In this document: piece by piece, positions 28,325 to 56,863 of the stretch | Layout of the letters: each line of letters starts with the position of its first letter | Position numbering within the stretch: position 1 is the first letter of the stretch | Source of the DNA: an uncultured Chlamydiae bacterium | GTDB lineage: Bacteria; Chlamydiota; Chlamydiia; Chlamydiales; SM23-39 | NCBI GenBank assembly: GCA_963730605.1 | Contig: CAVSSM010000007.1 | Coordinates: 166,806 to 230,805, forward strand | Reading direction: 5' to 3' | DNA length: 64,000 bases | Notes under the pieces: generated by a model | The model's input: only the letters and a program-made list of their open reading frames with translations | Database searches by the model: none | Told to the model about the DNA's origin: nothing | Position numbers and translations under genes: made by a program

Positions 28325-28487
28325 GATGCCAACTTTAGGTTAACGGTTTTGGGTTGGAGGGCGCTGCCGGTTAAGATTATTCTTTGCTGCAACGCCATTG
28401 CACCGTCGGCATACATTTTAAACTTTAACTTGATATTCGATCAAGCCGAGTCTTGCCTAAGTGCAGTGGATTGTGCTGGTTATGAAA

Positions 28488-28529
28488 TGGGGCAACCTGG
28501 ATTTGAACCAGGGACCGACGGGTTATGAG
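28488..28529 (-). tRNA. 3' half of tRNA(CAU) (Met/Ile2); att site 1
   Basis: CTCATAA anticodon loop, CCCGT, T arm CCTGG-TTCAAAT-CCAGG, TTGCCCCA; no 5' half. Confidence 0.85.
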
Positions 28530-28820
28530 GGAGGGAGATTTCCATCCCATTCAGCACGATCCAACCGTTATGAGCATAAGTGTAAATGAGTTGTTGAATG
28601 GTTGCAACGGGTTTTTGCGGATTAAGACCGGGTTTTTGGTGCAGCCGTTGCACCGCCATTGCACCGTGAGCACGCTGGGAACTGCAAAAATTGGAAAATG
28701 GTTTAGAATGAGGGCCAGCAGAGTTCGCTTTCTTATCAGCCATGATCTCTGCCCAGATTGGTAACAGCTCTCCCGTGAAGTGAAATGGCCTTAAATAAAG
28801 GATAAAGAGGTTTAATCAAC

Positions 28821-29786
28821 ATGAAACAACCAATAAAAATCCCTTTCGGCCTCAATAAAAGCAATGTTCTTGTCCATATTTCTGATGTAGAAAGTGGCAA
28901 AAAATGCGGCTGTATCTGTCCGGCTTGCAAATCTCCGCTGATTGCAAGCAAGAAAGGCCGACAAAGGCAAGAGCACTTCAAACATGCTGCTGTCATCGAA
29001 TGTGAAGGCGCATTTGAAAGCGCAGTCCATCTGGCAGCTAAAAAGATTATTACCGAAAGAAAGCAATTAACCCTCTCGCAGTACCTCATCAGTGTATCGA
29101 AAAAAGACTCAAGGGGAAGAGAGTATACGGCACAAAAAACCATTGTAAAGCATGGGACGAATATAAACTTCGATTCCGTAGAAGAAGAAGTAGAATTACA
29201 GGGCATGAGAGCTGACATACTGGCTAAGAAAGGTGCTCATCAACTCATTGTTGAGATTTTTTATCGCCATAAAGTGGATGATCAAAAGCGTGAAAAAATA
29301 ACTGAGAACAACCTATCCGCAATAGAAATCAATCTTTCTAATCTATTGCCAAGAGATGTGCAGGACTGGGAAGCTTTTTGGCTGTATATTAATGATCCTC
29401 AGCATATTCAATGGTTACATAATGCTAAAGCTCATCATGCCGATTATCCGGAACTTGAAAAGCAGGTAACAGAAAAAATTCAAGAGCAAGAAGAGAAATA
29501 TAAACAGGAAGAAATCGAAGCACAAGAACGGGCTCAAAAAGAGCTTGTATCTTTCCCGAATGACTTAAAGGGGCGTCAACGCAAGGAATATCCATCACCC
29601 GATAATCGGCCTCTTTTGTATAGACCATCGCTACCTCAACGAAGAGGGCCGCCGCTTATTGATTTGGTACATCCGTCTAGCGGAAGATTTACGGGAACCC
29701 AGAGACCAAGCAGCTATCGAGAAAATCGAACCTTTGGTCGCAAAAAAAGTGAAGCTGCCATTGATTTTCTATTGGAAAAGCCATAG
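28821..29786 (+). CDS. CoiA-like zinc-finger plus PD-(D/E)xK nuclease protein
   Basis: CICPACKSPLI...HFKH...ESAVHLAAK; RADILA...LIVEIFYRH. Confidence 0.7.
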   Translation: MKQPIKIPFGLNKSNVLVHISDVESGKKCGCICPACKSPLIASKKGRQRQEHFKHAAVIECEGAFESAVHLAAKKIITERKQLTLSQYLISVSKKDSRGREYTAQKTIVKHGTNINFDSVEEEVELQGMRADILAKKGAHQLIVEIFYRHKVDDQKREKITENNLSAIEINLSNLLPRDVQDWEAFWLYINDPQHIQWLHNAKAHHADYPELEKQVTEKIQEQEEKYKQEEIEAQERAQKELVSFPNDLKGRQRKEYPSPDNRPLLYRPSLPQRRGPPLIDLVHPSSGRFTGTQRPSSYRENRTFGRKKSEAAIDFLLEKP

Positions 29787-29853
29787 TACGGGTGTCTTTT
29801 TTGTTTGAACAGACAGGCGGCGGCGCATTAATTCCACTCTTGAATTGCCAAAT

Positions 29854-30833
29854 TTATTCTTTTTTAGATGGCTTGATTTCGTCGAATTTTGTCTTGGGAA
29901 AAAGAAACTCTTCTGTTAAACCTTCAGACTTTAGAAATTCTTTCACCTCATCAAAAGTGTTCGCTGGAATAATCATTTTGATGAAGGTTTGTTGTTTGGT
30001 TTCCGAGTAATGTTCTTTCCATGACAATTCAAAATCTTTCCTAAAATCCATTTGCGCAAGATAAATCGCCTCTTGTCTTTTGGCTTTGGGATCTAGGGTA
30101 TTGTTCAATTGAGCATTGGGCCACGGAAGACGGGGTAGGCCGGAATATTCTTGTAAAGGGTTTTGGACTAATGATTGTCTCAGCATTGATACGATGTCTT
30201 GGAACGGGGTTTCTCCAGGATGAAATACTGGCCCAAGATTTTTCTGATGAACCACAAACAAAGCTGCCTCATCGGGTTGTAAACGATTTCTGTTTGCAAA
30301 AAACAAACCGATTTTCCAATTAAGAGAAAAATCTAAAAAATTTGTCCCTAAAGGTATAAATCCAGCTAAATTCGGATCTTTTGGATTTTGTTGAACATGG
30401 ATGTGATGTTGGAAAATCATGTCAATGGGATGACCTCTTACTACCATAGGAGGTGCAACTCCGAAAAGAAACCGCCTTAAAATTGGGACTGACTCAAGAG
30501 TTATCAATAGATCATTCCCAAGTTCATGTTGGAGGGCAGTATTCGACCGTTCTTCGGCTGTGTATCTTTGGGTATCTTCCAATCCTCTCCGCACTTTCAT
30601 GTTACGAGCAAAAGTTGAATCAAGAAGACGATAGCTAAGGCGCTGACCTCGATAATAACAGGATTCTGGTATGAGAGCTTTGATGTGTTCCAGTTCGATC
30701 AAACAATCATAAAAAGTTGCAGGTCGCCACTCAAAGCCATCATCGCTAACAAGGGTATTTGATAAGCTTGGGGTATGAATAAGGCGTCCTAAGTAGATCG
30801 GGTTAATTGCTTTTTTTCGGGTTTGTTAGGCAT
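29854..30833 (-). CDS. FRG-domain protein (5' end probably shifted at an A-run near 30811-30817)
   Basis: YYRGQ, QHH...TNFLDFSLNWKIGLFFA match FRG motifs. The upstream frame is open towards ATG 30833 with one indel. Confidence 0.7.
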
Positions 30834-31069
30834 GATCCCTTTTAAATTGGTCGTGTTGTCGATGGATGCTATTCTTTCTAAATCATTATTTCAACACTTT
30901 CAAGGACAGCAAAGAAGTTTATCTTAGGGGGGATTTTTCTCCCGTTCTCTCTCTAGAGTTTTTCAACACAGCCCAAAAAGACTGGTAATCACACAGCCAA
31001 TGAACACGCCAATTCTTAGAACAAATGAAAATAGAATAGCGAAGAGATCATTCATGTTTTTCTGTATTA

Positions 31070-31411
31070 TTATTGATGGTTTCTTGATTTTATTTTTAAT
31101 TCATATAACACCAGTAGCTTTAAGTCTTCCGGTAAATTGCTGTTCTGAACACGAGTAACATACTCAACATGTTGTTCTGGAGTCCATGAATTGAGTATTT
31201 CATCTATAAAAATTTCATTTTTTATATTGTTTATTCTTTCCTGTTCTTCTAGATTTTTTCTAATACCTTGTCCAATCGATTTTCCCAAATTCTCTCCAAA
31301 TTTTGACCAAGCCTCCATTCTTGGATCTGGCCCCGTTTCAATCATTTGTACCGCCTGAATACTCGAAATACAGAGACACATCCCAAGCATGCTTAAAACT
31401 AATAACTTCAT
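31070..31411 (-). CDS. Secreted hypothetical protein
   Basis: Signal peptide MKLLVLSMLGMCLCISSIQA. Confidence 0.65.
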   Translation of the reverse strand: MKLLVLSMLGMCLCISSIQAVQMIETGPDPRMEAWSKFGENLGKSIGQGIRKNLEEQERINNIKNEIFIDEILNSWTPEQHVEYVTRVQNSNLPEDLKLLVLYELKIKSRNHQ

Positions 31412-31453
31412 GCCGCAGCCTTTAATTTATTTTTTTATTTCGTGATATCGCTA

Positions 31454-31747
31454 TTATTTACTTCTTGCGTAGGGATTTACGTACGTATATCCCTTGCTTG
31501 TTTTTTTCACGTGACCGGATGTAGTTTTAGTCTTCGGCAATCCGTTGACAGTGCTTCGTTTTCCATATCCCGCATAAGGAGCGGCCTTTTTATACGAAGA
31601 GCCGCGGCTTTTTGCCACAACAGCTTTAGGCGTATAGTCTGGGGTAAACTTCGGATAATATGACTTTTTCGGTGCAGCATTTAGTCCGCCTGCTGATAGC
31701 ATCAACACTCCCAAAAGAGCTGCGCTAAATAATTTGTTTTTAAACAT
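31454..31747 (-). CDS. Small basic secreted protein
   Basis: Signal peptide; C-terminal SGHVKKTSKGYTYVNPYAR; RBS GAGG. Confidence 0.7.
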   Translation of the reverse strand: MFKNKLFSAALLGVLMLSAGGLNAAPKKSYYPKFTPDYTPKAVVAKSRGSSYKKAAPYAGYGKRSTVNGLPKTKTTSGHVKKTSKGYTYVNPYARSK

Positions 31748-31883
31748 TTTCTATCCTCATCTTACTGGTTATTTTTCATTCTTTTGTTAAAATTTGCGAT
31801 CAACGAGAAGATTAATTCGATATAAAAACGAGATAAATCCTCTCCGCAATTAATAATTTCATTTTTTCATACTAAGATCATGC

Positions 31884-31917
31884 AACACTATCGTGTTTTA
31901 ATCAACACTATAGTGTC
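31884..31917. promoter_or_regulatory. Tandem palindromic operators upstream of the XRE gene
   Basis: ACACTATCGTGT and ACACTATAGTGT, 21 bp apart, in a divergent intergenic region. Confidence 0.6.
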
Positions 31918-31959
31918 TGTAAAAAGAGAGCTTTCTTGCTTAGCCTCTAGAAGAGGCCA

Positions 31960-32190
31960 ATGTCGACAAAAACTGAAAAACGTAAAGATCCATTACTCCT
32001 GGAATTCGCCAAGAAGATTCGTCTACGGCGACACGAGCTGCAAATGACGCAAGAGGAGCTTGCCGAAAAGGCCGAGATTCACGTGAATTTTGTAGGAGGG
32101 ATCGAACGTGCTTCAAGAAATCCCTCGTTAACGAGCATTGTGAAGCTTGCCAAAGCCCTTAAAGTGAGTCCTAAGGATCTTGTTCCTTAA
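31960..32190 (+). CDS. XRE-family (C-protein-like) HTH regulator
   Basis: MTQEELAEKAEIHVNFVGGIERASRNPSL. Confidence 0.9.
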   Translation: MSTKTEKRKDPLLLEFAKKIRLRRHELQMTQEELAEKAEIHVNFVGGIERASRNPSLTSIVKLAKALKVSPKDLVP

Positions 32191-32429
32191 AGCTGGCTCA
32201 AAATATCTTTACTCATCTTGATGAGCCGCATAGCCTCTTTGTGTTCGCCTATTGCCTTCTTGGTACAACCCCCATGTTTCAAAGCGGCTTGACGGGACTT
32301 TTCCTTGCCGACTTGAGTAATCGGCCCTTTCGACCGCCCCCCGTGCATTCGGCAGGTTGTTCGCTTGCGAATTGCCCAATTGAGGCAACGTTGCTTTGAT
32401 CTTTTGCTGATGGCTGTGCACTGTCCCAT
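32187..32429 (-). CDS. HGGxSTG-domain protein
   Basis: CTAISKRSKQRC...CRMHGGRSKGPIT..GK...ALKHG. Confidence 0.85.
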   Translation of the reverse strand: MGQCTAISKRSKQRCLNWAIRKRTTCRMHGGRSKGPITQVGKEKSRQAALKHGGCTKKAIGEHKEAMRLIKMSKDILSQL

Positions 32430-32446
32430 GGTGCAAGGGGTTCAAT

Positions 32447-33055
32447 TCAAGAAATTATGTCCCCACCCCTCCTCCCAGATGATAGGTTTTGAGCGACGAT
32501 CGCCTGCCCTTCATTATGGAAGTGGATCACTTGTACTGTTTGCTGACCCTTGGCTCGGTACTTAGTAAGAGCTTGCATGGTTTGAGTAGCAGCGTTGAAG
32601 AGTTTTGTTGCTAAATTGATATAGCGCTCAGTGTAATCAAGCTCACCTTGAAAATGGCCTTTACGCAGATAGTTCATGGCAGATGCTTGTAAAGTTATGA
32701 ATTGTCCCGCAAGCAATGCTTCCGTTTCATCCTGTGGTCTAACCGTTGGAAGTAGACTGGCCATGCGCGTGAACCGTTGCTCGAATGTTGAATCCGGTAA
32801 TCCTCTCGAGACATGCCACAATATGTCTATGGCAAAATTTGCATCATCGGTACCCGTGGCTTGCTTGAAAGCCGTTGCAAAGCGTTCCACCGATTCCTTG
32901 TTTCTAGTTGTTCCATCGGCAAGAGTGAGCTTCGTTTCCTCTCCTCCAGATTCAGGGTTATCCAATACCCGCAGAGGTTTCTCTAGACGATTTTCCACTG
33001 ACGATTTTGGCGAGAGTGGAGATATATCAGTTTGTTTTTTCAGATTTTTCTTCAC
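32447..33055 (-). CDS. Hypothetical protein of the type found next to HGGxSTG genes
   Basis: PQDETEALLAGQ...KYRAKGQQTVQVIHFHNEGQAIV. Confidence 0.7.
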   Translation of the reverse strand: MKKNLKKQTDISPLSPKSSVENRLEKPLRVLDNPESGGEETKLTLADGTTRNKESVERFATAFKQATGTDDANFAIDILWHVSRGLPDSTFEQRFTRMASLLPTVRPQDETEALLAGQFITLQASAMNYLRKGHFQGELDYTERYINLATKLFNAATQTMQALTKYRAKGQQTVQVIHFHNEGQAIVAQNLSSGRRGGDIIS

Positions 33056-33222
33056 TGCTCTATTTCCTTTAGTAGCATTTCAAATGCTACCCATTAATTT
33101 AAATCATTCAAAGAATTGATGGTACAATAGAAATCCAATGGTCCAACGATTTGTTGGATGATAAAGTTGGGATTTCCGATTTTCTGAAAACCATAGGGGA
33201 TCGGAAAATCAGAAATGCCCAT

Positions 33223-34938
33223 CTAGTCAATGAGTTCCAGATCGCGAGCCCTTTTTTGTCTTCCTTCAACCTTCGCTTTGGTCAATCCAGTTTTCTCCAT
33301 GATTTCTTTGATCGTGTGGCCTTTCTTTGTAAGTTCAGCTACGGCTAAGACTTCCGGATCGATATCGGCTTCTTCGACTTTCCAAAACCAGAGGCCATCG
33401 TTACTTTCGCACAGCTCGACTTGGAAAGGCATCGCCGCATCTCCCGCGAAATTTCGAGTTTTCTCAAAGACAACCTCGAATCGCGCCCCCTGGTCAGAAC
33501 GGTAGTTTGGTGGATGCTTGAGACAGATTACTGCGTCGAGGATGTCTTCTTTTTTGCTCGTTCCTCGTTGCTGGCCGCCTTTACCTGCGTGGTGAACGAA
33601 AAGGATCGATTTTCCGCGTCTTCGCAAATCTAAAGCCCAATCTTGGGCAGGCTGCCAACTGTCCGCATCGTTTTCTATCCCGCTTCGGAATAGAGAGGAG
33701 ATGTTATCGATAATGATCAGGTCGCAGTCGACTATGAATTCTTCGATCGTATCCCTTCCCGATCTCAGGGACAGATCGGGCATCGGTCTATCTTGCAGGT
33801 CGGGTGTAATCAGCCGAAGGTTTCCTTTGGCGAGGGTATCAAAATCGTCAGTATCTGCAATACGACGTAAGCGCTCTTGAATAGCGACTCCGGGCATTTC
33901 TCCGTCGATGAAGAGTACTTTCCTGGGCTTCGGAGCTTCCCATTTCCAAAATTTTCCGCCTCTAGCGACGGCGCCCGCAATACCAAGTGCCGCGTGAGTT
34001 TTGCCAACGCCGCGCTTGGCATAGATCATAGCTAACCCTTGCGAAGGTAAAAAAGGAGATAATAGCATTTCTCTTTCTGGGAGCTGCATAGCCAGAAACT
34101 CTCCTAGGTTCACCGCTATGATTGTACCTTTTTTCCTGGCAGGAGAGTAGTCGGGAGTTTTAGAAACGATCTCGAGCAGTTCCAACGTGGTGTGGCCCAT
34201 TGCCAGCCAATCGCTCACATCTAGTCCATGTGAATCGTGATATTCGAGCCCCGGTAGATCCACAATCCGCAACCGTTTTACTTTATTGTGAAGGTTCTCG
34301 CAGAGAAGATTTTTCCTATTAACGCCAGTCTCGTCCATATCATAGAGGATGACGACGTCGGCCCCGGCAAGCATTCCGGTAAACTCCTCAATCCATTTGA
34401 TTGATTCTGGCGAGGTCGTAGCAATGAGGCCGTAACCAATGAGCTTGTCCGCGTCTTTTTCACCCTCAACCAAGAAAATTTGTGTCCCTTCTGCAATAGC
34501 CTTGATGACCTCAGGAAGACGGTAAAGGACTTTTCTACATCCATGCAAATTTGCAATCACCTGTCCGCTCTCGTCCATGCGTTCGAGATAGAAGGTTTTG
34601 CTCTTCCCGTTTGGGCCGGGCTCGAGGCGGACTTTTCTGTAGAGTTCATGGCCTTCTTCATCTTTGTAAGAATAGACAGTGCGAAGAGGGGTGCGTTTTG
34701 CGGTCGAGTCAGACTCGAAGAGGTCGGACATCCCCAAACCAAGGGAAGCGCAAATGGAGTCAACGGGACATCCAGCGAAGCAGTGGAGCAGAATTTTTCC
34801 ATCACACCCCTCTCTGATCGAAAGGCTGGGATTTTGGTCACCATGAGCGGGGCAGCAAGCCGAGTAGCCGGCACCCGATTTCTGGGCAGCTCTGCCGGTC
34901 TTCGATTGAAGGTTTTCTAAAAATGATCGAATTTCCAT
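33223..34938 (-). CDS. Primase-helicase (Zn finger, TOPRIM, AAA_25/RepA-like)
   Basis: CPAHGDQNPSLSI..HCFAGC; FLVEGEKDAD; D.DETG; AKRGVGKT; IIIDN; VHHAGK. Confidence 0.9.
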   Translation of the reverse strand: MEIRSFLENLQSKTGRAAQKSGAGYSACCPAHGDQNPSLSIREGCDGKILLHCFAGCPVDSICASLGLGMSDLFESDSTAKRTPLRTVYSYKDEEGHELYRKVRLEPGPNGKSKTFYLERMDESGQVIANLHGCRKVLYRLPEVIKAIAEGTQIFLVEGEKDADKLIGYGLIATTSPESIKWIEEFTGMLAGADVVILYDMDETGVNRKNLLCENLHNKVKRLRIVDLPGLEYHDSHGLDVSDWLAMGHTTLELLEIVSKTPDYSPARKKGTIIAVNLGEFLAMQLPEREMLLSPFLPSQGLAMIYAKRGVGKTHAALGIAGAVARGGKFWKWEAPKPRKVLFIDGEMPGVAIQERLRRIADTDDFDTLAKGNLRLITPDLQDRPMPDLSLRSGRDTIEEFIVDCDLIIIDNISSLFRSGIENDADSWQPAQDWALDLRRRGKSILFVHHAGKGGQQRGTSKKEDILDAVICLKHPPNYRSDQGARFEVVFEKTRNFAGDAAMPFQVELCESNDGLWFWKVEEADIDPEVLAVAELTKKGHTIKEIMEKTGLTKAKVEGRQKRARDLELID

Positions 34939-34948
34939 TTGCCCCCCC

Positions 34949-35167
34949 TTAGCGTTGTTTTGGTGATTGATGTTTAGTGGCTTGATTTTCGATCCATTGC
35001 TCGAATAGGTCGATCCGCAGCATCAAACGTTTGCCAATTTTTCTGACGGCATTGTGAAGGCCGTTTCGGTGGCGGAAGAGGAGCAAGTGCCGAACCTGCC
35101 CCATGCTCAGAGAATATCGCCCACTGGATACAATTTTTTGAGGCGACCAGTATTCGTAATTGCTCAT
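34949..35167 (-). CDS. AlpA/excisionase-like DNA-binding protein
   Basis: 72 aa; NGL..AVRKIGKRLMLRIDLFEQWIE; directly upstream of the primase. Confidence 0.65.
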   Translation of the reverse strand: MSNYEYWSPQKIVSSGRYSLSMGQVRHLLLFRHRNGLHNAVRKIGKRLMLRIDLFEQWIENQATKHQSPKQR

Positions 35168-35293
35168 ATAACCTCTGGGTAATTGGGTGTTAATTATATG
35201 AGCTTGATTGTACTAGATTTTTTTACGAGAGGATTGATGACTGTATTTTTCTACATAGAGGAGAAAAAAAATATCCCTCACTTGACACCGTAT

Positions 35294-35989
35294 TTATTTC
35301 TCGACAGGTGCGTGCTTTTTTGGACGGCCTTTCTTGCGTTCCTCCAATTGGGCTAACCAAGCATCTGTAATCGTCCTTTTTTTATAGTGTCCTCCAAGAG
35401 CTCTGATTTGACGAAGAGCGCTCTGCATACGTGGATGATCATAGATTTCGTTTCTGCTTAGCCTGTATTCAAATTTGCTGACCAAGTTGTTAGCAGCTTT
35501 CAAATAGAGAGCTCTGTGATACGCCTGACTGAATTTTGGCTTTGTATGTAATGGAGAGTTTTCAGATGAAAACTCCAAGAAAATTTCGAGTAAGGGAAAA
35601 GGCAGAGCATCCAAAAACCGCCGTTTAATAGGCAAATCCTTAATTGCCGCCCACTTCATAAAACGCCAAGATGACATCGCGTAGTTTTGATCCTCGCGAA
35701 TACGCTCTGTCACACGTATTTCCTCAATCTCGCTCAAAAACCGCCGAAAGATCGTATTTGCCTCAATTGCTCTTTGGAGGTTTTTGGCATTTACATACCT
35801 CTCATCTTTTGCCAGAACCCCTTGATATACTTCAGGAATCATTCCGGCCATTAAGCAAGCGAACTCCTCAAGCGACCACCAATTTTCTTTGAAATATGCC
35901 TTATAACGATCTTCTTCCGTGGGAAAGAGAGAACGATACAGCATTCCTCCAAGACTGTCATTTTGAGTAGGGGGTTTATCTGTCATCAT
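35294..35989 (-). CDS. Hypothetical protein
   Basis: 231 aa ORF with WSLEEFACL..G..P and C-terminal KKGRPKK; RBS GAGG. Confidence 0.65.
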   Translation of the reverse strand: MMTDKPPTQNDSLGGMLYRSLFPTEEDRYKAYFKENWWSLEEFACLMAGMIPEVYQGVLAKDERYVNAKNLQRAIEANTIFRRFLSEIEEIRVTERIREDQNYAMSSWRFMKWAAIKDLPIKRRFLDALPFPLLEIFLEFSSENSPLHTKPKFSQAYHRALYLKAANNLVSKFEYRLSRNEIYDHPRMQSALRQIRALGGHYKKRTITDAWLAQLEERKKGRPKKHAPVEK

Positions 35990-36097
35990 TTCCTCGGAAT
36001 ACTATCATCCAGGCGCTGCTGGGCGTGTCCAATGGCTTTGAGAGTTTTTCTCGCAGGACTTCTTTATAGATTCTAAGTCTCGAGCCATAAACTCTCC

Positions 36098-36422
36098 TTA
36101 TGAAACGACGTGTCGCAACTGTTCAGTCACATAAGAATTTAGACTGATCCCCATAGTTTTTGCCTGAAATGCCAGTTTTGCATGAAGTTCAGGGGGAATG
36201 CGAAGATTGAAAGTGCCAGAAAAAGTCTTTTCAGGTTTCTCACCGCGTTCTCTGCACCAATTTAGATAGTCATCGACAGAACCTTTAAAAAGCTTGCTCC
36301 AATTCATCTACGCTTTTGCCTTGAAAGGTGATAATGTCGCTAAGTCCAACAACTTCGCCATGGAATATTTTGGCGTCGTCATCATATTCGACGTGTCCTA
36401 TATATCCTTTATATTTCATCAT
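36098..36422 (-). CDS. hicB: HicB antitoxin (one indel in a T-run near 36290)
   Basis: MKYKGYIGHVEYDDDAKIFHGEV..ITFQG, then SVDDYL.WC.ERGEKPEK.FSGTFNLRIPPELH. Confidence 0.88.
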
Positions 36423-36691
36423 GGCAGCTTTTTCTCCTTTGGTTTTACGCCTGCGTTCTCTAGAAATTTTCTAAGGGAGACCAATGCTCCTTTGTCGGTC
36501 TCCTTTTTCGGGTGAGGCCGATGGAAGACGGCCTTCCGCTTATTCAAAAGGATCCTAACTCTAGATCCTTCGCCTTCCGAAATCTCCGCTCCTAAAGATT
36601 CTAGGAGCTTTTCGCAGTCTTTCCAGACTACATTCGATTGGACCGGAACCTTGAAAATTGCTTCAAGGGTTCGCTCGTGCTTCTTGCTCAT
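36419..36691 (-). CDS. hicA: HicA toxin
   Basis: KHERTLEAIF..P...W...EKLL..LGAEISEGEGSRV...VFHRPHP. Confidence 0.9.
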   Translation of the reverse strand: MSKKHERTLEAIFKVPVQSNVVWKDCEKLLESLGAEISEGEGSRVRILLNKRKAVFHRPHPKKETDKGALVSLRKFLENAGVKPKEKKLP

Positions 36692-36709
36692 ATATCTTTT
36701 CTATCCTTA

Positions 36710-36731
36710 ATGGTACCATAAATTAGTACTA
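36710..36731. promoter_or_regulatory. Putative HicB operator
   Basis: Palindromes ATGGTACCAT and TAGTACTA just upstream of hicA. Confidence 0.5.
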
Positions 36732-36850
36732 TTTTTCAAATCAATCACAACCCATTTAAAGTAAACGATATAAGCTATCGTCCGCCAAGAAACCTATCGC
36801 TATTTTGGAGATTGTTGCGACGGCTTGGCGACGTCCTCTTAGGTCGTTTG

Positions 36851-37913: not shown

Positions 37914-38081
37914 AGTTCCAACCTTATGTGTTTTAGGGTTTGGTTGGATGGCGTGCTGGTTAAAATTATTTTTCATTGCACCGCTATTGCACCGTAAGGG
38001 ATAAATTTAAACTTAAACTTGATTATTTAGATCAAGTCTAAATGCGACCTATCTACAGTGGAATTGAGTGCTTTAGAGAAA

Positions 38082-42482: not shown

Positions 42483-42636
42483 GGCGTCTCCTTGCGTCTG
42501 TTTTTTCAAAGAGTTAGCCATGCAATTGATTGCCCTCCGATGTTGGCTTTTGGAGTTTAGTGGTCAGCCAGTGGACATTTGAGTTTAGCAAACATTTTAG
42601 TGAGTGCCAATTATTTCCTTACGTCTATGACTTTTA

Positions 42637-43553: not shown

Positions 43554-43776
43554 TATAAGCGCAATGCCAGATCAACCATAATGGAATCAGTCCGGCAATC
43601 GCATAAGTTAAAGGCTCAATAAGTGCATCCTCTGAGATTGAAATACGCGTCGATAAAAAAGAAAAAAATGCAAACAGCGCAAGTGGGTAAAAAATGAGAA
43701 AGCTGGCCGTAGAAAACAGCCAATGCTTGCGGATTCTATTTTCACAATTATTCGCTATACTGCTTGGCATGCTCAT
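43554..43776 (-). pseudogene. Membrane protein truncated by IS5
   Basis: Two hydrophobic segments; ORF runs into the IS5 TIR. Confidence 0.55.
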
Positions 43777-43972
43777 TAAAAGTCCTCTTGAAATTCCATA
43801 ATTTAAAACATATGTACTGTTTAAATTAAATATTTTAATGAATGTTAAAAATCGTTATTCATTTAATTGTCGCGTGAATAATATCAGTTAACTAGATTTA
43901 AAGTCTTTAGATCTTACGTCTCTAGATGCTGAAGCTTTAGACGCATAGCCTTTCCTTATTTAGGAAGAGGGT

Positions 43973-44236
43973 ATGGGTAAGCGAAAAGTCATTAAGCCAA
44001 AAAATGTTAGGCCGAAGGAGCGTAAAACAAGTCTTCAGATCTCCTTCGGGAAAATTATAAGAACGGCGAGGTTAGAAAAAGGGTTGTCGCAAGAGGAGTT
44101 GGCGGATCTATCTGAGCTTCATTTTACGTACGTCAGCTCTGTAGAAAGGGGCGAGAGGAATATTTCTATCGAGAACATAGCCCGATTGGCAAAAGCTTTA
44201 GGATGTCAACTTAAAGATTTAATGCCGACGATCTAG
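43973..44236 (+). CDS. XRE-family HTH regulator
   Basis: LSQEELADLSELHFTYVSSVERGERNISIENI. Confidence 0.9.
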   Translation: MGKRKVIKPKNVRPKERKTSLQISFGKIIRTARLEKGLSQEELADLSELHFTYVSSVERGERNISIENIARLAKALGCQLKDLMPTI

Positions 44237-44571
44237 AGACCAGAGACTGCGATGCAACCTCGGCCGGAGAAGATATTTTGTCTGCGGGGTTTTCTGACTC
44301 TAATTTCTACTTTACACCCCAGAATGGCGAGATAATGGAGGAGAGTATCTGTGCTGAATTCAGAGAGATGCCCATTCACTAGCATAGAGACTTTGGATTG
44401 TTTAATTCCGAGGTTTTTAGCGACTTCGTGCTGGGTAAGTCCACTTTTCTCAATGAGATCGCCGACTTCGTCTAAGAGTTCGGATCTTGCAACGAGCTCG
44501 TCAGCATCTTTTCTTCCAATAGCGGCAAAAATATTACCTTCATCGACTTCGTATTCAGCTTCTTTAGTCAT
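44233..44571 (-). CDS. HTH antitoxin (HigA-like, HTH_37)
   Basis: GNIFAAIG..DADEL...LTQ.EVA..LGIKQSKVS.L..G.LS.FS; overlaps the toxin stop. Confidence 0.82.
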   Translation of the reverse strand: MTKEAEYEVDEGNIFAAIGRKDADELVARSELLDEVGDLIEKSGLTQHEVAKNLGIKQSKVSMLVNGHLSEFSTDTLLHYLAILGCKVEIRVRKPRRQNIFSGRGCIAVSGL

Positions 44572-44951
44572 TTTTTGCCTCTTTTTTCTTTCCATTCTCT
44601 ATATATGATCTCTGCGAGCTTAATCCTCGAATGGATGAGCTCTTTGTCTTGCTTTGGTGTCTGAATCCCTTTTTTGCTCTTCTTCTGAAAAGCATGGAGG
44701 ATGACGACTACCTCAGCATATCTGACGGTGTACACAGCTCGGAATGTACCGTCAGCGTTGTCTTTCCAAAGTTCCATTACTTGGCCCCCTCCGAATCCAC
44801 TCAATGGTTTCGCATTTTTGGGGACTTTTCCTTTTTGCACTTGGAAGAGCCAGTGTCCGAAGTCGTTCACCACATCTTCGGGCATTTCTACGAAATCTCG
44901 CTTTGACGAAGCCACCCAAAGGAGGGGGCGCAAGTCAGCTGTTTCATTCAT
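44568..44951 (-). CDS. Gp49/RelE-like (HigB-type) toxin
   Basis: KPLSGFGG..VMEL....GTFRAVYTV....VILHAFQKKSKKG..TP. Confidence 0.88.
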   Translation of the reverse strand: MNETADLRPLLWVASSKRDFVEMPEDVVNDFGHWLFQVQKGKVPKNAKPLSGFGGGQVMELWKDNADGTFRAVYTVRYAEVVVILHAFQKKSKKGIQTPKQDKELIHSRIKLAEIIYREWKEKRGKK

Positions 44952-45041
44952 TATCTACCTCAAATTATATCAATATCGTGATATTTTTGCTACTCTCTCT
45001 TATTCGACTGTATTTCAAAAGGTTATGTTCATCAAGGAGGT

Positions 45042-45614
45042 TTATGCCTCGCCTGAAACCTCAATTTTGGCTTCTTTTAGCACCCGATAAACGGAGGCTT
45101 CTCCAATATCTAGCCGTTCGGCCACTTTCTTGCGGGTGATGCGGGTTTCACAGAGCCTGAGCACTTCATCGATGACATCTTGGGATAAGGGTTTCCTTCC
45201 CTTGAATTTCCCTTCGGCTTTTGCCTTAGCGATCCCTTCACGCTGTCTTTCGAGCATGATTTCCCTCTCAAACTGCCCGATAGCGCCGAGCATCGTGAGC
45301 ATGAGCTTCCCAGTGGGGGTATTTGTGTCGATCCCGAGGTTGAGAATGCGCAAGGAAACTCGTTTTTTCTCCAACAGTTGCACGATCGATAATAGATCAG
45401 CTACGGAGCGGGCCAATCTGTCGAGCTTCGCAACGACAAGGACATCGCCCTCTCGAACGAAATCTATGGCAGCATTGAGCTGTTCTCGTTCTGCTACTGA
45501 AGAAATTTGTTCTTGGTAAATTTTATTGCAACCAGCTGCCTGCAATTCTTTGATTTGTGCTTCTAATCCAGCAGTTTGCTCGATAGTGGAGGTTCTAGCG
45601 TATCCGACGATCAT
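45042..45614 (-). CDS. Serine resolvase/invertase
   Basis: VGYARTST.EQ, DVLVVAKLDRLARS, ERQREGIAKAK..G...GRK, C-terminal HTH. Confidence 0.95.
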   Translation of the reverse strand: MIVGYARTSTIEQTAGLEAQIKELQAAGCNKIYQEQISSVAEREQLNAAIDFVREGDVLVVAKLDRLARSVADLLSIVQLLEKKRVSLRILNLGIDTNTPTGKLMLTMLGAIGQFEREIMLERQREGIAKAKAEGKFKGRKPLSQDVIDEVLRLCETRITRKKVAERLDIGEASVYRVLKEAKIEVSGEA

Positions 45615-45725
45615 ATCTATCACACAAGTTTAAGAGGTTCGATAGGTTTTCTATCTTAAAACAAATCATGAGTTAAATGATAGAGAATTTGTCTCTATCT
45701 TTAGAGCCCTGCCCTATTGATAGAC
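45615..45725. promoter_or_regulatory. res site with three subsites
   Basis: Three CTATC-N(19-23)-GATAG inverted pairs immediately upstream of the resolvase. Confidence 0.75.
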
Positions 45726-46000
45726 TTCTTGGGGTTCAATGACTCTCTCCGTGGCTCGTTCCAATATTTTTCGTAGATGATCAGCAGAAGGGTGGTTATA
45801 CGTCTGGGAAGAACGCACGTCTTGATGATTAGTGATTTTCATAGCATCGAGAACGGTAGCTCCCGATTCGGCTAAAAGTGTTCTGCAGGTATGTCGAAGA
45901 GAATGGAACACAACGCCGGCTCTTTTGAGGTTCGCTCTTTTCAGGGCAAAGTTAAATGCGGTAGTGATATCTATGGGACGTTTATTTAGGCGGGGGAATA
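45714..46000 (-). pseudogene. Tyrosine integrase C-terminal fragment
   Basis: DITTAFNFALKRA...FHSLRHT...ITNH.D....Y; cut by an IS3 end. Confidence 0.8.
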
Positions 46001-46043
46001 TGAGGTGGACCCAATCGACTGGACAACTTTTTAGGCTAAACTA
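46001..46043. mobile_element. Solo IS3 end
   Basis: Identical to 8577-8619. Confidence 0.85.
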
Positions 46044-47239
46044 GTACCTGACCACAAAAGTTTTCATGGGTAGAGCCTCTTCATTTTCACTCGCGCATCT
46101 GGGATAGCAAATCCCCAAAGGATCTTTGCCCGTCTAGCATTTCTATCTGATACATAAGCGGCCACCTCTCTACCGAGAACTTCTTTTGAGCCTATTCGCC
46201 TTTTGAGGCACTGACCGCCAAGAACAGAAATTTCAATCTCTGCCATGTTCAACCAACTTGCATGTTTTGGCGTATGGCGCACCTCTAATTTCTTAATGAT
46301 CCTCCTGGCTTCTTCGGGCTCAAACGTCTCGTAGAGATTAGCCAGTCGATGCGTATTCAAATTGTCCATGACAACCCTAATTTTTTCTGCCTCGGGAAAA
46401 TGTTTGTCCACCAGATCCTTCATGCACTCGGCAAAATCTTTTTTTGTTCTCTGGTCTGTGACTTTTATTTCCCGCCAGCCTCCCAAGGGCTGTACAAAAA
46501 CAAAGAGGTTGCTTGTTCCATTCCTTTCGTACTCATAATCTCGGCGTTTGACTCTCCCTGGCACTGCGGCAATTGGCGCCAACACATCATCTACCAATTG
46601 GACTGGTGTTTCATCAAAACACACAACGGGTTTCTTTTCGTTCAGCGGCTCCTCATATAAATCTAAAACATCTTCCATCCGACAAATATACTCGTAATCC
46701 ACTTCTGGAACACACCAACTCTTTACTTGCCATGGCTTTATTTCGTTTTTTTTAATGTTCTGCGAACCGTTTCGTCCGATATGGAATCTGTCAACTCTAG
46801 CGTAATGCAACGATCCGCAAGTAGCTGCATTGTCCAGCAGGCGCGTCCTTCGGGCGCCTCGCTGCAAGCAAGCGCGATTAAATGGGCTTTAGCCTTTCCA
46901 ACCATCTTCTCCGGTCTTCCGGATCGCGCTTTTTCATTGAGTGATTGTTGTAGCCCGTGTTCACAGTAGGCTTTTCTTGTATTGTAAACGCTCACCTCGC
47001 TGCACCGTAGCAAAGAGGCAATCTCTTTATCTGGTTTCTTCTCATCAGCGAATAACAGAGTTTGCGCTCTTCTGATAATCCGCGCGGATGACTTCCCTTT
47101 TCTAACAATGTCCTCGAGTTCGCTGCGCACCTCAACTGTGAGATGAACGGACCATTTTTTGTTCATAGCTGCCTCCAAATGAAAGGCATATATGGAACAC
47201 TATTCAAACATTTTTTTAAAAACTTTTGTGGTCAGGTAC
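46044..47239 (-). mobile_element. IS630-family element C, copy 2
   Basis: Same length, TIRs and ORF translations as 17527-18722; CTAG target. Confidence 0.95.
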
Positions 47240-47358
47240 TAGAGCGCAAGCTATATCGGCGCTGAACAGTCGAAGGTAAGGCTTGTAGTAGGAAAAAAAC
47301 TTTCTATCTCGAGAATTCACAAAATTCCTCTACGCAATCGGCTATCATGCAACATCTT

Positions 47359-48426
47359 TCATCCAATGAATTCGATTGTTTTGGTTTTAGTATTAATTCT
47401 TATCCTACCGCCATTGGGAAGAATCATTTGAGGATCGGTATGCCCAAAGTTCATGTTGAAAATGACGGGGATAGAGGTGCCATAGTCCTTCAATGCAGCT
47501 GTAATGGCATTTTGTTGATTCTGGATAAAGGTTTCTCTTCCCTCGGGAGGAAAGTGTCCACAGAATTGGGCTTTGGGGAAACCCACAAGAATGGCTTGGA
47601 ATTGTTTTAGGAGTCCTATTTCTGCAAGCGAGGCGATAAAGCGATAGACAAATCCACTGGAAGGCATTTCTTCGGATGTTTCTATAAAGAGAATCGTATC
47701 GTTGAGGGTTTGAGGCGAGGGGATAAATCGTTGAATTCCCAAATGGAAATGAAGGACTTCAAGACATCCTCCCCAAAGCCTGCCCTCAATGATCCGATCT
47801 TGAGGCTCGTGCCAATGCCAGCCATCCGATGGATACATGGGACGATTTTTATGTAAATTTTGCTTATCTGACCAATCTAAATCTGCATCGCTGTATACAG
47901 GCGAAGAAACGACCAGCCCAATCGAAGAATGAAATAGAGCCTTTTGGATCGAATGAATTGTGTATTCATGCATTTCCTTCCCCATGGCAAATTGGGTCAT
48001 AATAGCACCGCCATAATAAGAGATAATGCCAAGGTTCCACAGGACAAGATGAAGGTTGGTGTTATCGCTGTAGCCCATGAAAATTTTCGGATTTGCCTGT
48101 ATGATCTTTTTATCCAAGAAAGGCAGAATTTTTACCTGATCATTTCCTCCGATTGTTGCGATAATTCCTTTAATCGATGGGTCGGCAAAGGCTCTATTAA
48201 TATCATCTGCTCGTGCTTTGGGGTTTTGAGACAAAAATTCGGGGGATTTGCGAGCTGTTGAAAATTCTACGGGCTCCAGTTCAAAAACTTCTTTCAGCCT
48301 TCGTAAGCCTTGTTCATATACCCAAGGAAATAGGAAGGGCATTCCAGAAGAAGGAGAAACCACGGCGATTTTGTCTTTGGGTTTTAACGGATGGGGTTTA
48401 TGAAATTCCATAGGGCATGGTGTCAT
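47359..48426 (-). CDS. S66 peptidase (LD-carboxypeptidase/MccF-like)
   Basis: IAVVSPSS, IGGND, GYSDNT, WGGCLE, ETSEE, FGHTDP. Confidence 0.92.
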   Translation of the reverse strand: MTPCPMEFHKPHPLKPKDKIAVVSPSSGMPFLFPWVYEQGLRRLKEVFELEPVEFSTARKSPEFLSQNPKARADDINRAFADPSIKGIIATIGGNDQVKILPFLDKKIIQANPKIFMGYSDNTNLHLVLWNLGIISYYGGAIMTQFAMGKEMHEYTIHSIQKALFHSSIGLVVSSPVYSDADLDWSDKQNLHKNRPMYPSDGWHWHEPQDRIIEGRLWGGCLEVLHFHLGIQRFIPSPQTLNDTILFIETSEEMPSSGFVYRFIASLAEIGLLKQFQAILVGFPKAQFCGHFPPEGRETFIQNQQNAITAALKDYGTSIPVIFNMNFGHTDPQMILPNGGRIRINTKTKTIEFIG

Positions 48427-49523
48427 AAATGCTTCCCCAGCGCTCGATCATTTGGATGTGTAGGCTCTCCATCGGGATTGTTGAATGGCATCTCTATGTA
48501 CCCGAGCTTTTTGTAAAAAAGATAGGCATCTGGTGAGGCTTCTGTTTGGAGAAGTACCACGCCCAGCTTTTTGAGCGCTTCCTCGCAATAATCCATCAAA
48601 TATTTTCCTATGCCACCGCCACGCCTTTGCTCATCGATGACTATAATACGCAAAGCCGCCCTATGTTCTGGCCAGATTTGTACATGGGCATAGCCAATAA
48701 CCTTGCCATCTTCATACAAAAGCCAGTGGAGATGATCCTTTCGATCTAAAGTCCAAGCGTATTGAGCATTCCATGTTGCTGGAGGAGGATCTAATCGCTG
48801 CGGGAGAGGATGAGTATCACGCTTTTTAAAGACTTTTTGCAATGCGCGAAGCATCTCATCGGGCTTGGGGGTTTTCATGTTCAGTAGAAGAACCATATCG
48901 ATCAGATCCTTTGGGCGGGAATTGACTTTCTGACCGCGAAGCAGGGTGTAGGTGTGTAGTTTTTCGGCGAATTGTTGCTCGATTGAAATCATGGGAATAA
49001 TCGGTGCGGGGACTCCGCAGAATTCGAGCCAGTTCGACCCTTGGATGGTCTCGACTTGATCGAGAAGAAAATCGGCGCCTACATCCAACCGGAAGCGGAC
49101 ATAGAGTTTTTTATCGACCAGGGCTGAGACCGGATATCGGGCACCTCCATAAGGAGCGTTTTCCAGATCGATTTGCGCTTCTCCAACTTGGTAGATGAAG
49201 TGATCGTTCAGATCCCGCTCCGCTAGATCCCGAAGATCGTGCAAGATCAGCGCACTGATAAGTTCGCTCTCTTTTTTAACTCGTCGCACAAAGGTGAGGT
49301 CGATGTCTTTCGTTGCTCGGGCATGAGCGAGGCGCAATTCCATTGCGTAGCCGCCCTTGAGGTAAAACCCTGGTTTCTCTCGAGAGAAAATCCGCGCTAG
49401 AAAACGATCGAACGCGACTTTGCGGCGAAGGCGCTGCAAGTCGACTTTGGTTTCGGCAGCGAGCCCCTGAAGGCGGGCTTCAAGACTTTTACGGAAATCA
49501 GTAGCGCTTTTGAATTTTATGCT
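48423..49523 (-). CDS. AbiEii/AbiGii nucleotidyltransferase toxin fused to a C-terminal GNAT domain
   Basis: LKGGYAMELR...RATKDIDL, AEKLH, SRPKDLID; then GYAH...LRIIVIDEQRRGGGIG...FYKKLGY. Start is approximate. Confidence 0.85.
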   Translation of the reverse strand, partial: SIKFKSATDFRKSLEARLQGLAAETKVDLQRLRRKVAFDRFLARIFSREKPGFYLKGGYAMELRLAHARATKDIDLTFVRRVKKESELISALILHDLRDLAERDLNDHFIYQVGEAQIDLENAPYGGARYPVSALVDKKLYVRFRLDVGADFLLDQVETIQGSNWLEFCGVPAPIIPMISIEQQFAEKLHTYTLLRGQKVNSRPKDLIDMVLLLNMKTPKPDEMLRALQKVFKKRDTHPLPQRLDPPPATWNAQYAWTLDRKDHLHWLLYEDGKVIGYAHVQIWPEHRAALRIIVIDEQRRGGGIGKYLMDYCEEALKKLGVVLLQTEASPDAYLFYKKLGYIEMPFNNPDGEPTHPNDRALGKHL

Positions 49524-50106
49524 TATGGACATAAAGATCTCTATATTGTTTTAATTGAGGATGAGAGGTTTTATTCAAATCTTGAAGAGTCAAATTCCCT
49601 TTCCTAAGGCCATCTCGAATGGCTTGTTCGATTTGTTCTTGAGGAACGATTCTCTCATCGATCACATCGATCAGAGTGCGTAGAGGCGTAGTCACTTGGT
49701 AGCCTTGCCAAGTTTCTCTATCGGTTTTGGCTAGAGTCGCAAAATGGAGTTTGAGATGTTTGGGAATTGCGATTCGCTTTCGAAAACGGGGAGGGACTGT
49801 CATGTGCATTTTGGAGGGCATGACATCGCTTAGCTCATGAATATCGAGAGCTGTCTCATGAGACCAGACTCCTTGAGGGTTGCCTTTTTTATCCCTGCTC
49901 CAAAGAATCCAAAGAACTAGTTCAGATCGATCGGTCAATGGGTAGCGAGCGAGACGATAGATCCCTCTAAGCAATTTGACCCATTCTCCTGAGCGAATCC
50001 TGAAATGAAAATTTGAAGTAGGGATTCCACATGCCTCAGCTTGCTGTGAAGTAAAATATCCTTGCTGTCGATCTGCTACTTCAAAGAGTTTGTCTTGCGG
50101 GTTCAT
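49498..50106 (-). CDS. AbiEi-family type IV antitoxin
   Basis: ADRQQGYFT..QA, RGIYRL, SHETAL.IHELSD.MP, VTTPLRTL.D. Confidence 0.9.
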   Translation of the reverse strand: MNPQDKLFEVADRQQGYFTSQQAEACGIPTSNFHFRIRSGEWVKLLRGIYRLARYPLTDRSELVLWILWSRDKKGNPQGVWSHETALDIHELSDVMPSKMHMTVPPRFRKRIAIPKHLKLHFATLAKTDRETWQGYQVTTPLRTLIDVIDERIVPQEQIEQAIRDGLRKGNLTLQDLNKTSHPQLKQYRDLYVHKHKIQKRY

Positions 50107-50127
50107 TCTGATTGATACCGGTTGTTG

Positions 50128-50160
50128 TACAAATACTATAGTTTCTATAGCTTTTGTGTA
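50128..50160. promoter_or_regulatory. Inverted-repeat operator upstream of abiEi
   Basis: TACAAATACTATAG-TTT-CTATAGCTTTTGTGTA; AbiEi proteins are known to autoregulate through promoter inverted repeats. Confidence 0.5.
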
Positions 50161-50253
50161 AATAGAGACATAGTAGTTGATCCATCGACCTGATCCTTAG
50201 AGTAATATGAATTGTCGTGTCATGACGCGACAATTGTAACGGGCTCATCACAA

Positions 50254-51324
50254 TTATAGAGAATTTCCTTTCAGGATTTGGTCCGAGATTTGGTTGCTGA
50301 ACTGTTTTGTGACTTCCACGTCCATATGGGTATATTGGAGGAGCATCGACAAGGTGCGGTGGCCCGTGGCTGTCTGGAGTTGAAGATTGGACGCTCCTTT
50401 TGCCGCGGCGTAGGTGCAGAAAGTGTGTCTCATGTCATGCGCCCGGCAATTAGAAATGCCGCCGCGTTTGAGGGCTTGCTGCCAGGCCTTCTTGATGTCG
50501 ACGCGGCCGAAGGCGGTCTTGCTCGCGAAGACGAGTGGCTTGAGCATATCGCGGAGGTCGCGAAGGCGCCGCAGCTCGGCTACGACGGGATCGCAGAGCG
50601 CGATGCTGCGCGGACGCCCGTTCTTGCTCTGCTTGATGTAGGCGATCTTGTTCTCGAGGTCGATGTGTTTCCATTCCAGGTTGAGGATTTCGCTCTGGCG
50701 CGCGCCGGTTGTGAGGGACAGGATGATGTAGCAATAGAGGTAGGGGGATTTGCTCGCGCGAGAGGCGGAAAGGAGGCGGGCGGTCTCGTCTTCCGTGAGG
50801 ACGCGGTCGCGGCCTGGATTCTCTTTGAGTTTGATGAGCCGAAGCGCGGGATTCTCGCTAATCCAGCGAAGATGTTGGGCCGCGTAGGTGAGAAGAGAGG
50901 AGAGGGACGCATAGTAGCGGTTCGTGGTGGACGAGGTTCGCTTGCGTCCCTTCGGGGTCGGAGTGTCGATCAGGAGCTGCCGCTCTTTCCCGAGAAGTTC
51001 GGGGGTGATGTGGACCAGGGCGTAGGCGCCTAGGCGGGTTTTCCAGTAGGCGAGGTGGCGCCTGGTGTCATCGCCGGAACGATGATGCTCCAGGGCGCCG
51101 TCTTGGGTGTAGCGATCCGTGAGTTCAGCGAAGGTGCGGATTTGGTTATGTTGGTCGAACTTGAATTGGCCAGCCTTGATCTGGCGCTCCACTCCTTGCG
51201 CCCAATCCTCAGCCTCTTGCTTCCGTTCGAAGTGATTGCAGACGGTGGGGTAGCCCTTGATGCGGACGACCGCGCGCCAGACGGTCGTGCCGTCGTCGTT
51301 TTTGCGTTTGTAAATGGATGCCAT
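50254..51324 (-). CDS. Tyrosine integrase (intact)
   Basis: TGARQSEIL, KNG, HDMRH, GH, QY catalytic residues; adjacent to att site 3. Confidence 0.95.
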   Translation of the reverse strand: MASIYKRKNDDGTTVWRAVVRIKGYPTVCNHFERKQEAEDWAQGVERQIKAGQFKFDQHNQIRTFAELTDRYTQDGALEHHRSGDDTRRHLAYWKTRLGAYALVHITPELLGKERQLLIDTPTPKGRKRTSSTTNRYYASLSSLLTYAAQHLRWISENPALRLIKLKENPGRDRVLTEDETARLLSASRASKSPYLYCYIILSLTTGARQSEILNLEWKHIDLENKIAYIKQSKNGRPRSIALCDPVVAELRRLRDLRDMLKPLVFASKTAFGRVDIKKAWQQALKRGGISNCRAHDMRHTFCTYAAAKGASNLQLQTATGHRTLSMLLQYTHMDVEVTKQFSNQISDQILKGNSL

Positions 51325-51487
51325 GATGCCAACCTTGGTTAACGGTTTTGGGTTGGATGGCGCTGCCGGTTAAGATTATTCTTCGTTGCACCGCCATTGC
51401 ACCGTCGGCATATATTTTAAACTTTTACTTGATATTCGATCAAGCTAGGTCTTGCCTAAATGCAGTGGATTGTGCTGGTTATGGAGA

Positions 51488-51537
51488 TGGGGCAACCTGG
51501 ATTTGAACCAGGGACCGACGGGTTATGAGTCCGCAGC
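51488..51537 (-). tRNA. 3' part of tRNA(CAU); att site 3
   Basis: GCTGCGGACTCATAACCCG...GTTGCCCCA; upstream sequence forms no proper D arm or acceptor 5' strand. Confidence 0.85.
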
Positions 51538-51701
51538 ACCCGCGCCACTTCCCAGCAGCTAACTCCCCGAGATCATAGCGGAAAGCCAGCCTTTCGAGCT
51601 ACTGCGAACTGTCGTCATTTATCGCACTTTTTTGTACGCCAGTGGTCCACAAATGGTCCACGGAATCAGATCGATCTATAATCGACACTTCATCTCTATT
51701 T

Positions 51702-53135: not shown

Positions 53136-53147
53136 AGTCTACTCTGG

Positions 53148-56837: not shown

Positions 56838-56863
56838 TAATAATTGGCCTCTTGTTTTTGCCA

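Follow-up and report, generated by a model that had tools for sequence, protein, structure and literature searches.

Evidence for a tandem stack of integrative elements with clade-specific paired arm-type sites behind one tRNA(CAU) gene of an uncultured Chlamydiae bacterium

The window analyzed here is the final 64 kb (64,000 nt) of contig C7 (CAVSSM010000007.1) in genome G000 of an uncultured Chlamydiae bacterium (2.2 Mb, 12 contigs). It contains three displaced 3′ halves of a tRNA(CAU) gene (att1, att2, and att3), integrase genes, and short motifs arranged in pairs (Table 1). The tRNA halves lie where a previous reading of the DNA letters (hereafter, the sequence-only reading) had placed them, and att2 and att3 contain the anticodon stem, the loop, and the 3′ half. 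These features very probably represent at least five mobile elements of three integrase lineages stacked behind one tRNA(CAU) gene; the number of elements claimed in the sequence-only reading is thus supported. With similar confidence, we regard the locus as a tandem array that has this tRNA as its target and carries clade-specific paired sites of the arm type, as used by three-domain tyrosine integrases. Counted outward from the tRNA, the elements are E1 (clade B2), E2 (clade A), E3 (clade B1), E4 (clade A), and E5 (a clade A remnant), followed by orphan clade C arms.

For comparison, related loci were collected using the three clade integrases as queries; G and L labels denote the genomes and loci of these relatives, which mostly belong to the Chlamydiota. 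Close relatives of the integrase int3 occurred at 59 loci, most of them from metagenome-assembled genomes of Chlamydiae, Chlamydiales, or Parachlamydiales, and the host is accordingly regarded as an environmental chlamydia. Because related loci are kin and not independent, the clade and motif counts given below are descriptive and are not P values.

The intact tRNA(CAU) gene was found on another contig of the same genome (C12:26242-26315), with one mismatch to the att copies. Behind it were a GTGGACCA pair, a frameshifted integrase gene, and type I restriction cargo, with 8 kb to the contig end. An intact tRNA(CAU) with an integrase of the TGGAC type behind it had been predicted, and both were present, on contig C12 since the window stops at a contig end. 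The genome has two further CAU genes, one with initiator features; by elimination and by resemblance, the target is probably the Ile2 gene. A 67-nt "tRNA-Met" called by ARAGORN at 51488-51554 was rejected as an intact gene, because it corresponds to att3. No terminal att was found on C7 to the left of int1.

Table 1. Features of the tRNA(CAU) locus, in window coordinates and ordered from the right end leftward
Feature	Position	Strand	Remarks
E1, clade B2	51535-64000	-	Far end and metabolic cargo: epimerase, ADH, P-type ATPase, aldolase, xfp, ackA, HAD, MscS
B2 arm-type pair	51643-51660	-	E1 far end; identical pair at C12:26398-26415 behind intact tRNA
att3	51488-51534	-	Displaced tRNA(CAU) 3′ half and 5 nt of 5′ anticodon stem; 47 nt, through TCCGC
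Clade A pair	51387-51404	-	63 nt upstream of int3
int3	50254-51324	-	356 aa; sole intact integrase of the stack
E2 body	43557-50253	-	AbiEi/AbiEii-GNAT, S66 peptidase, IS630, unrelated integrase C-terminal fragment, resolvase, Gp49/HTH toxin-antitoxin pair
IS630 in E2	46041-47243		
IS5-family element	42637-43556		End approximately 10 nt from E3 att position in orthologues; flanks without matching duplication
B1 arm-type region	42548-42581	-	E3 near end; pair at 42561-42576
Clade B1 integrase	41755-42482	-	Frameshifted; truncated near residue 240, without C-terminal third
E3 cargo	38247-40924	-	YhcG-type nuclease and SEC-C/TPR protein
B1 arm-type region	38231-38264	-	E3 far end; pair at 38244-38259
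att2	38082-38128	-	Displaced tRNA(CAU) 3′ half; 47 nt, 5 nt past att1 limit, through TCCGC
Clade A pair	37977-37994	-	Upstream of int2
int2, clade A	36851-37913	-	Frameshifted
E4 core	33223-36691	-	HicAB, 231-aa unknown, 72-aa excisionase-like protein, primase-helicase
72-aa excisionase-like open reading frame in E4	34949-35167	-	Conserved in clade A loci
Primase-helicase in E4	33223-34938	-	
Clade A pair	28649-28666	-	Far end of E4
att1	28488-28529	-	Displaced tRNA(CAU) 3′ half; 42 nt in common with tRNA, identity ends at anticodon-loop edge
Clade A pair	28388-28405	-	Upstream of int1
int1 remnant	27996-28324	-	N-terminal part, approximately 110-119 residues; 95% DNA identity to int3
Clade C-type signature, TGCG(G/T)AA pair	19699-19736		Orphan, no adjoining att
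Clade C-type signature, TGCG(G/T)AA pair	12011-12048		Orphan, no adjoining att

The sequence-only reading had recognized two integrase clades and two kinds of motif. Instead, there were three clades, because the TGGTC group splits into B1 (the integrase at 42482) and B2 (C12 and the pair to the right of att3), and a fourth, orphan signature lies further left (12.0 and 19.7 kb). Global identities were 112/350 between A and B1, 125/354 between A and B2, and 151/352 between B1 and B2. The last two clades were therefore only 43% identical and had different pairs, yet they formed one supported branch apart from clade A. Intact orthologues of A, B1, and B2 were found directly behind the same tRNA in G001, G014, and G005.

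The alignment-based AlphaFold model of int3 (mean predicted local distance difference test, pLDDT, 84.5) has an N-terminal domain, a core-binding domain, and a catalytic domain, and matched the XerA, Tn1549, and lambda integrases by fold. Within the catalytic domain (PF00589), R209, K234, H296, R299, H322, and Y331 were invariant or nearly so across 57 aligned rows. The modeled N-terminal domain (pLDDT 87-91) consists of strands at residues 2-8, 14-20, and 28-32 and a helix at 35-50; a fold of three strands and a helix has been described as an arm-binding domain in a source that places Chlamydia examples under IntTn916 (PMC8138268). The Pfam arm-binding model gave no match to the int3 N-terminal domain, and a fold search with a poor single-sequence model (pLDDT 41) returned only matches with Z < 5, including AP2/GCC-box and dsRBD chains. 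When profiles were ranked, HP1 and P2 came best after archaeal XerA and were the best non-Xer matches of solved structure; Tn1549 Int ranked high by fold comparison. Four further integrases of the same superfamily are present in G000 (C7:32280, C2:279985, C9:239948, and C1:7796), behind tRNA-Asn, tRNA-Tyr, and tRNA-Thr and, for one, without a tRNA seen; those at Tyr, Thr, and on C1 have clear 11-bp pairs of their own, and the one at Asn has a weak pair.

All seven motif pairs listed in the sequence-only reading were found in place, except that the pair near att3 begins at 51387, not 51388. Four TGCA(A/C)CG pairs occurred in the window, against a mean of 0 and a maximum of 0 in 200 first-order Markov resamples, and elsewhere in the genome such pairs were found only twice, on either side of an element at tRNA-Lys (contig C11). 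The bare TGG(T/A)C pair pattern (starts 38244, 42561, and 51643) was weak by itself (resample mean 0.28, maximum 2; 12 genome-wide) but specific when its longer context was considered. The two B1 ends were identical at 31 of 34 nt (38231-38264 vs 42548-42581), and the pair to the right of att3 recurred in the genome only beside the intact C12 tRNA. A repeat lag of 11 scored above the other lags from 8 to 15 in all three clades. Near-end pairs were located 63-79 nt upstream of the integrase start codon and far-end pairs 110-140 nt from att. Judged by position, fold, and covariation, the 11-bp-spaced pairs most likely serve as arm-type sites to which the N-terminal domain of the integrase binds. 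It is highly improbable that they are instead operators for autoregulation by the integrase or by a small repressor. The near-end pair does lie just downstream of a weak sigma70-like match (9/12, with 0.5 expected by chance), and the arm sites of KplE1 are described as overlapping the integrase promoter and repressing intS (PMC2951348), but the same pair stands at the far end with no integrase gene behind it, and regulation can add to an arm role without replacing it.

Neither an att nor an integrase was found at the orphan clade C pairs at 12.0 and 19.7 kb. In L073, 27-28 nt of this repeat recur at both ends of a 2.4-kb unit (L073:7344-9789) that lies directly behind the intact tRNA, without an integrase match and with a clade C pair at each end; a clade C-like pair also closes a clade C element in G296. 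The two copies in the window form a direct repeat 7.7 kb apart around a stretch riddled with insertion sequences (IS) and containing a split ClpA-like AAA gene. An SNF2 and SWIM module at 19727-23452, 93.5% identical to G002, starts inside the clade C motif.

The distribution of the motifs followed the integrase clades. A quick IQ-TREE tree was built from 111 full-length integrases among 150 records, with shorter, X-containing, and duplicate rows dropped. The pair of the respective clade was found in 33 of 36 clade A, 18 of 18 B2, and 7 of 7 B1 integrases, the three clade A misses being degenerate copies of the pair. Motif labels changed 13 times on the tree and 59 times when shuffled. A motif-blind test, in which the best lag-11 repeat upstream was assigned by nearest neighbor, gave the correct clade in 60 of 61 cases. 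A distribution unrelated to integrase clade, which the sequence-only reading had named as evidence against its proposal, was therefore not found: the motif tracks the clade across homologous elements.

The clade A motif was kept at tRNA-Lys (C11, both ends intact) and at another CAU gene, and thus follows the enzyme and not the target. Over 174 nt, the far ends of E4 and of the tRNA-Lys element had 72% identity. The latter element (L002, at C11:90.9-97.3 kb of G000) belongs to clade A, spans 6.3 kb at tRNA-Lys(TTT), and retains both ends; it encodes a D5-type primase and has an open reading frame (ORF) resembling gp3/terminase, and is more like a phage-inducible chromosomal island (PICI) than E4 is. 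No motif could be assigned at either end in 2 of the 29 intervals between att copies, and the signature was the same at both ends in 24 of the remaining 27.

The proposal that att length tracks the far-end motif held across genomes (duplicates removed; 17 further junctions had no assigned motif). In clade A, identity started at the loop edge in all 10 far ends, as it did at tRNA-Lys. B1 identity extended through GCGGA in 5 of 5, and B2-type far ends showed GCGGA in 13, ACGGA in 6, and AGGGA in 1 of 20. Most simply, the clades would have one 7-nt loop overlap in common, with differing element-side core half-sites; the longer att probably reflects such a half-site and not a different cut. We consider it rather unlikely that the B clades have a cut position other than that of clade A, in the 5′ anticodon stem, with att length recording the cut. 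The full 5-nt stem was indeed matched by all five B1 and 13 of the 20 B2-type far ends and never by clade A, but B2-like far ends in G162 and L062 match only four stem bases of the host tRNA, and the 7-nt loop is flanked by stem bases in inverted repeat, as is usual for a core.

The segment at 38.1-42.6 kb had been proposed to be an element of its own, and this was borne out for E3 by intact orthologues directly behind this tRNA, which have the same signature at both ends. Its near end (42625-41762) was 90% identical to that of a stand-alone B1 element (range for the near end, 72-90%), and 38101-38265 was 79-87% identical to the far ends of B1 elements. We infer that the near-end att of E3, and with it the E2-E3 junction, was lost by an IS-associated deletion; the ends of the att3-att2 interval would be mismatched because that junction was lost. 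Alternatively, att3-att2 (38.1-51.5 kb) could be one chimeric element with two integrases, formed by homologous recombination or module exchange, and the stack would comprise four units. No att was found between 42.6 and 51.5 kb, mismatched ends occur in G162 and L080 as well, and hybrids are described as forming in SXT/R391 tandem arrays (PMC5812530). However, both ends of the 38.1-42.6 kb segment match stand-alone B1 elements, and the IS end lies approximately 10 nt from the expected att; a single chimera is quite improbable, and it differs from a separate E3 only in how the junction was lost.

E2 has neither a replication module nor a far end; G001 has the same integrase and AbiE genes in a complete element. 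E4 has an integrase, an excisionase-like gene, and a primase-helicase, as do PICI and P4-like satellites. The named atlas clusters nearest to its 72-aa ORF were HTH_17 (42% of members) and, at 0.90, excisionase. The scanned ORFs of E4 gave no match to a head or packaging family, and several were without any family. E5 consists of the int1 remnant followed by a partial ackA and an intact xfp, and no far end was found for it. The ackA-xfp pair occurs twice in the window (24874-27770 and 58120-61055, 80% identical), and in several relatives stacked elements carry the same block of metabolic cargo; a related P-type ATPase is also encoded at 3358-5982. Under the Islander definition of a tandem, the units behind the tRNA, att3, att2, and att1 are members; the B1 unit is without an upstream tRNA fragment, and E5 is without a downstream fragment. 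No relaxase, coupling protein, or type IV secretion system gene was found in the 103 ORFs scanned with Pfam, a scan to which the gap between C12 and C7 is external.

The near end of E1, its integrase, and the intact tRNA are on C12 (26242 onward). In G162, a single-contig genome of another family, we observed one 26.5-kb element with an E1-type integrase, at 91.8% DNA identity, which matched the window at 51682-56839 (96.9%) and 58116-62479 (95.8%) and ended in the same pair and an att. In G001, of the same genus, backbone matching C12 lies before the tRNA, and backbone matching C7 comes after the element in the expected orientation, though 50 kb further along. The inferred continuation of C12 into the right end of C7 is well supported. 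The E1 cargo in the window contained 22 one-base or two-base indels, all beyond approximately 55.0 kb, toward the gap, and 1 of 24 backbone genes was frameshifted. The E1 frameshifts may be decay or local assembly error, and the two are inseparable here.

B2 elements (L159:2068-5365 in G162; L168-L173; G142) usually hold an opposite-strand module with a second integrase, which is approximately 55% identical to B2, has intact catalytic residues, and has no arm pair upstream. The rest of the module encodes a 240-aa unknown protein, a 97-aa Xis-like protein, and a 350-aa HTH/Rep-like protein. Of 400 genomes, 15 had the second integrase paralogue, 13 of them together with a B2 integrase. The elements seen in G399 and G225 lack the module, and it was not found in the G000 assembly, where the gap may contain it. 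In G162, a SMODS nucleotidyltransferase and a patatin, a pair resembling a cyclic-oligonucleotide-based antiphage signaling system (CBASS), are encoded immediately upstream of the second integrase (L159:66-2016). A second internal att core in B2 elements was considered, since the cargo between the second integrase and the far arm has borders that seemed capable of rebuilding a tRNA-like core, but it proved unsupported: the empty-junction pattern had 0 viral-contig and 9 metagenome-contig matches, none of the latter with an integrase, att, or arm nearby, and the far border of the cargo was also not at one fixed base.

An integrated unit is laid out as att, arm pair, inward-facing integrase, optional Xis-like or replication genes, cargo, arm pair, and att. 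An incoming circle would recombine at the anticodon loop and restore the tRNA with its own 3′ half, and each insertion would displace the old 3′ half outward. Because the arm sequence is clade-specific and the core is common, A, B1, and B2 could use one target without sharing arms. Clade A far ends would replace the 5′ anticodon stem, whereas B far ends would bring a stem-like core half-site and thereby give the longer att.

As to the order of arrival, the sequence-only reading had placed the newest elements to the right. Outward displacement, a pattern described elsewhere (bioRxiv 10.1101/2020.12.28.424599), predicts this, and E1, next to the tRNA, is the element whose outside relative is closest (92-97% DNA identity, another family); the order may thus run newest to the right, though perhaps not strictly. 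It is possible, though less probable, that position in the stack says nothing about age, with B-type far ends rebuilding a complete stem-loop core for later internal insertions. The presence of stem, loop, and 3′ half in att2 and att3 agrees with such insertions, and the integrase of E1 is broken by frameshift while the only intact one, int3 of E2, is second in line, which argues against a newest-right order. The E1 frameshifts, however, are concentrated on the side of the assembly gap and could be errors, and newest-to-right is retained as the likelier order. Competition of clades for the site, also proposed, was not borne out: A-then-B2 and B2-then-A orders both occur in relatives, and the clades coexist with no exclusion seen.

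Several points weigh against a tandem array with clade-specific arm-type sites. E4 is the only element complete within the window. The C12-C7 join is drawn by comparison and is not assembled, and the gene downstream of the element in G001 maps 50 kb further on C7, so that synteny is partial. The A pattern was also found in 1 of 75 non-A integrases and the B2 pattern in 6 of 93 others (49-56% identical to B2). The regular-expression motifs were composed after the data had been seen, and the motif-blind test was added for this reason. Three intervals had mismatched ends (L080, one in G162, and att3-att2 here). Finally, of five contig sets (best share 0.22), the four that were compared with 27600-44000 gave no backward joint of an excision circle, although contigs cannot show absence.

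The 17.5 kb to the left of the window consists of shared backbone. When window positions 1-20000 were compared with five same-genus genomes, nothing was found among the matches listed besides IS and miniature inverted-repeat transposable element (MITE) matches and the SNF2 stretch. A 5′-nucleotidase at 10578 was rejected as a backbone anchor, being present in 0 of 6 same-genus genomes. Palindromic MITE-like repeats of approximately 180 bp form two families (6012-6195 and 7031-7214; 23575-23750) with many genome copies, and one pair brackets a single DUF2490 gene. Three 48-bp tandem copies (9604-9747) lie within a 207-aa ORF without a Pfam match.

The design of these elements is already known; the depth and readability of the stack are unusual. 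Clade-specific paired arm repeats have been described for P2/186 phages, and the P2 consensus tgTGGaCa resembles the B2 unit (PMC3448106). The arm-site architecture is the same, but here a single genome has several clades stacked on a tRNA core that they have in common, the host belongs to the Chlamydiota, and no capsid, tail, or conjugation genes were found in the ORFs scanned. The mv4 attP is reported to have two pairs of adjacent 11-bp direct-repeat arm sites (bioRxiv 10.1101/2023.11.06.565760), with one pair per arm end, a tRNA target, and a 7-bp overlap (an mv4 feature). It is a single phage system, biochemically demonstrated, with another sequence and host. Islander tandem islands likewise have a displaced tDNA fragment and an integrase per member, with an anticodon-centered site class A; of 3919 islands, 125 tandems of at least two and 4 of at least three are given (PMC4383910), whereas at least five units are present in one genome here, and displaced copies number six in G162 and five in G142. 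Tandem accretion has been described for integrative and conjugative elements (PMC5812530). Tycheposons and PICI-like satellites resemble these elements in having an inward-facing integrase at a tRNA, a small replication module, cargo, and newer members pushing older ones outward (bioRxiv 10.1101/2020.12.28.424599). That source gives one integrase clade per tRNA, in contrast to at least six arm signatures behind one tRNA here. Among environmental chlamydiae, the islands Pam100G (PMC548262) and PnaD_GI4 (PMC5010888) are tRNA-linked, one of them near tRNA-Met and with an integrase; the available parts of these reports describe no arm sites, integrase clades, or stacked att junctions.

No paper on the present chlamydial elements was found in the literature searched, whose coverage excludes most subscription journals. 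Use of one site by several integrase subfamilies has reportedly been noted by Williams. The chlamydial lineage is regarded as mostly intracellular, with few described mobile elements. To this the locus adds the depth of the stack, at least six signatures at one tRNA, a recent cross-family transfer, and a second integrase paralogue.

Tentatively, the tRNA(CAU) gene may be a reusable landing pad for at least six clades throughout the environmental Chlamydiota, in which arms unreadable to other clades permit stacking and same-clade arms permit joint excision, and B2 may be a two-integrase class with recent movement between families. If so, non-shared arms would let elements stack without mutual excision or repression, and Int3, acting through its near arm (51387) and the att1 far arm (28649), would mobilize three elements together as a composite of 23,000 bp. 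Broken or contig-split islands can also be delimited from their arm signatures, as across the C12-C7 gap. The locus offers a naturally occurring set of integrases that have one core in common but differ in arm code, in which arm-domain specificity and cross-talk are directly testable, and it points to a recent transfer of 10 kb of metabolic and defense cargo between chlamydial families.

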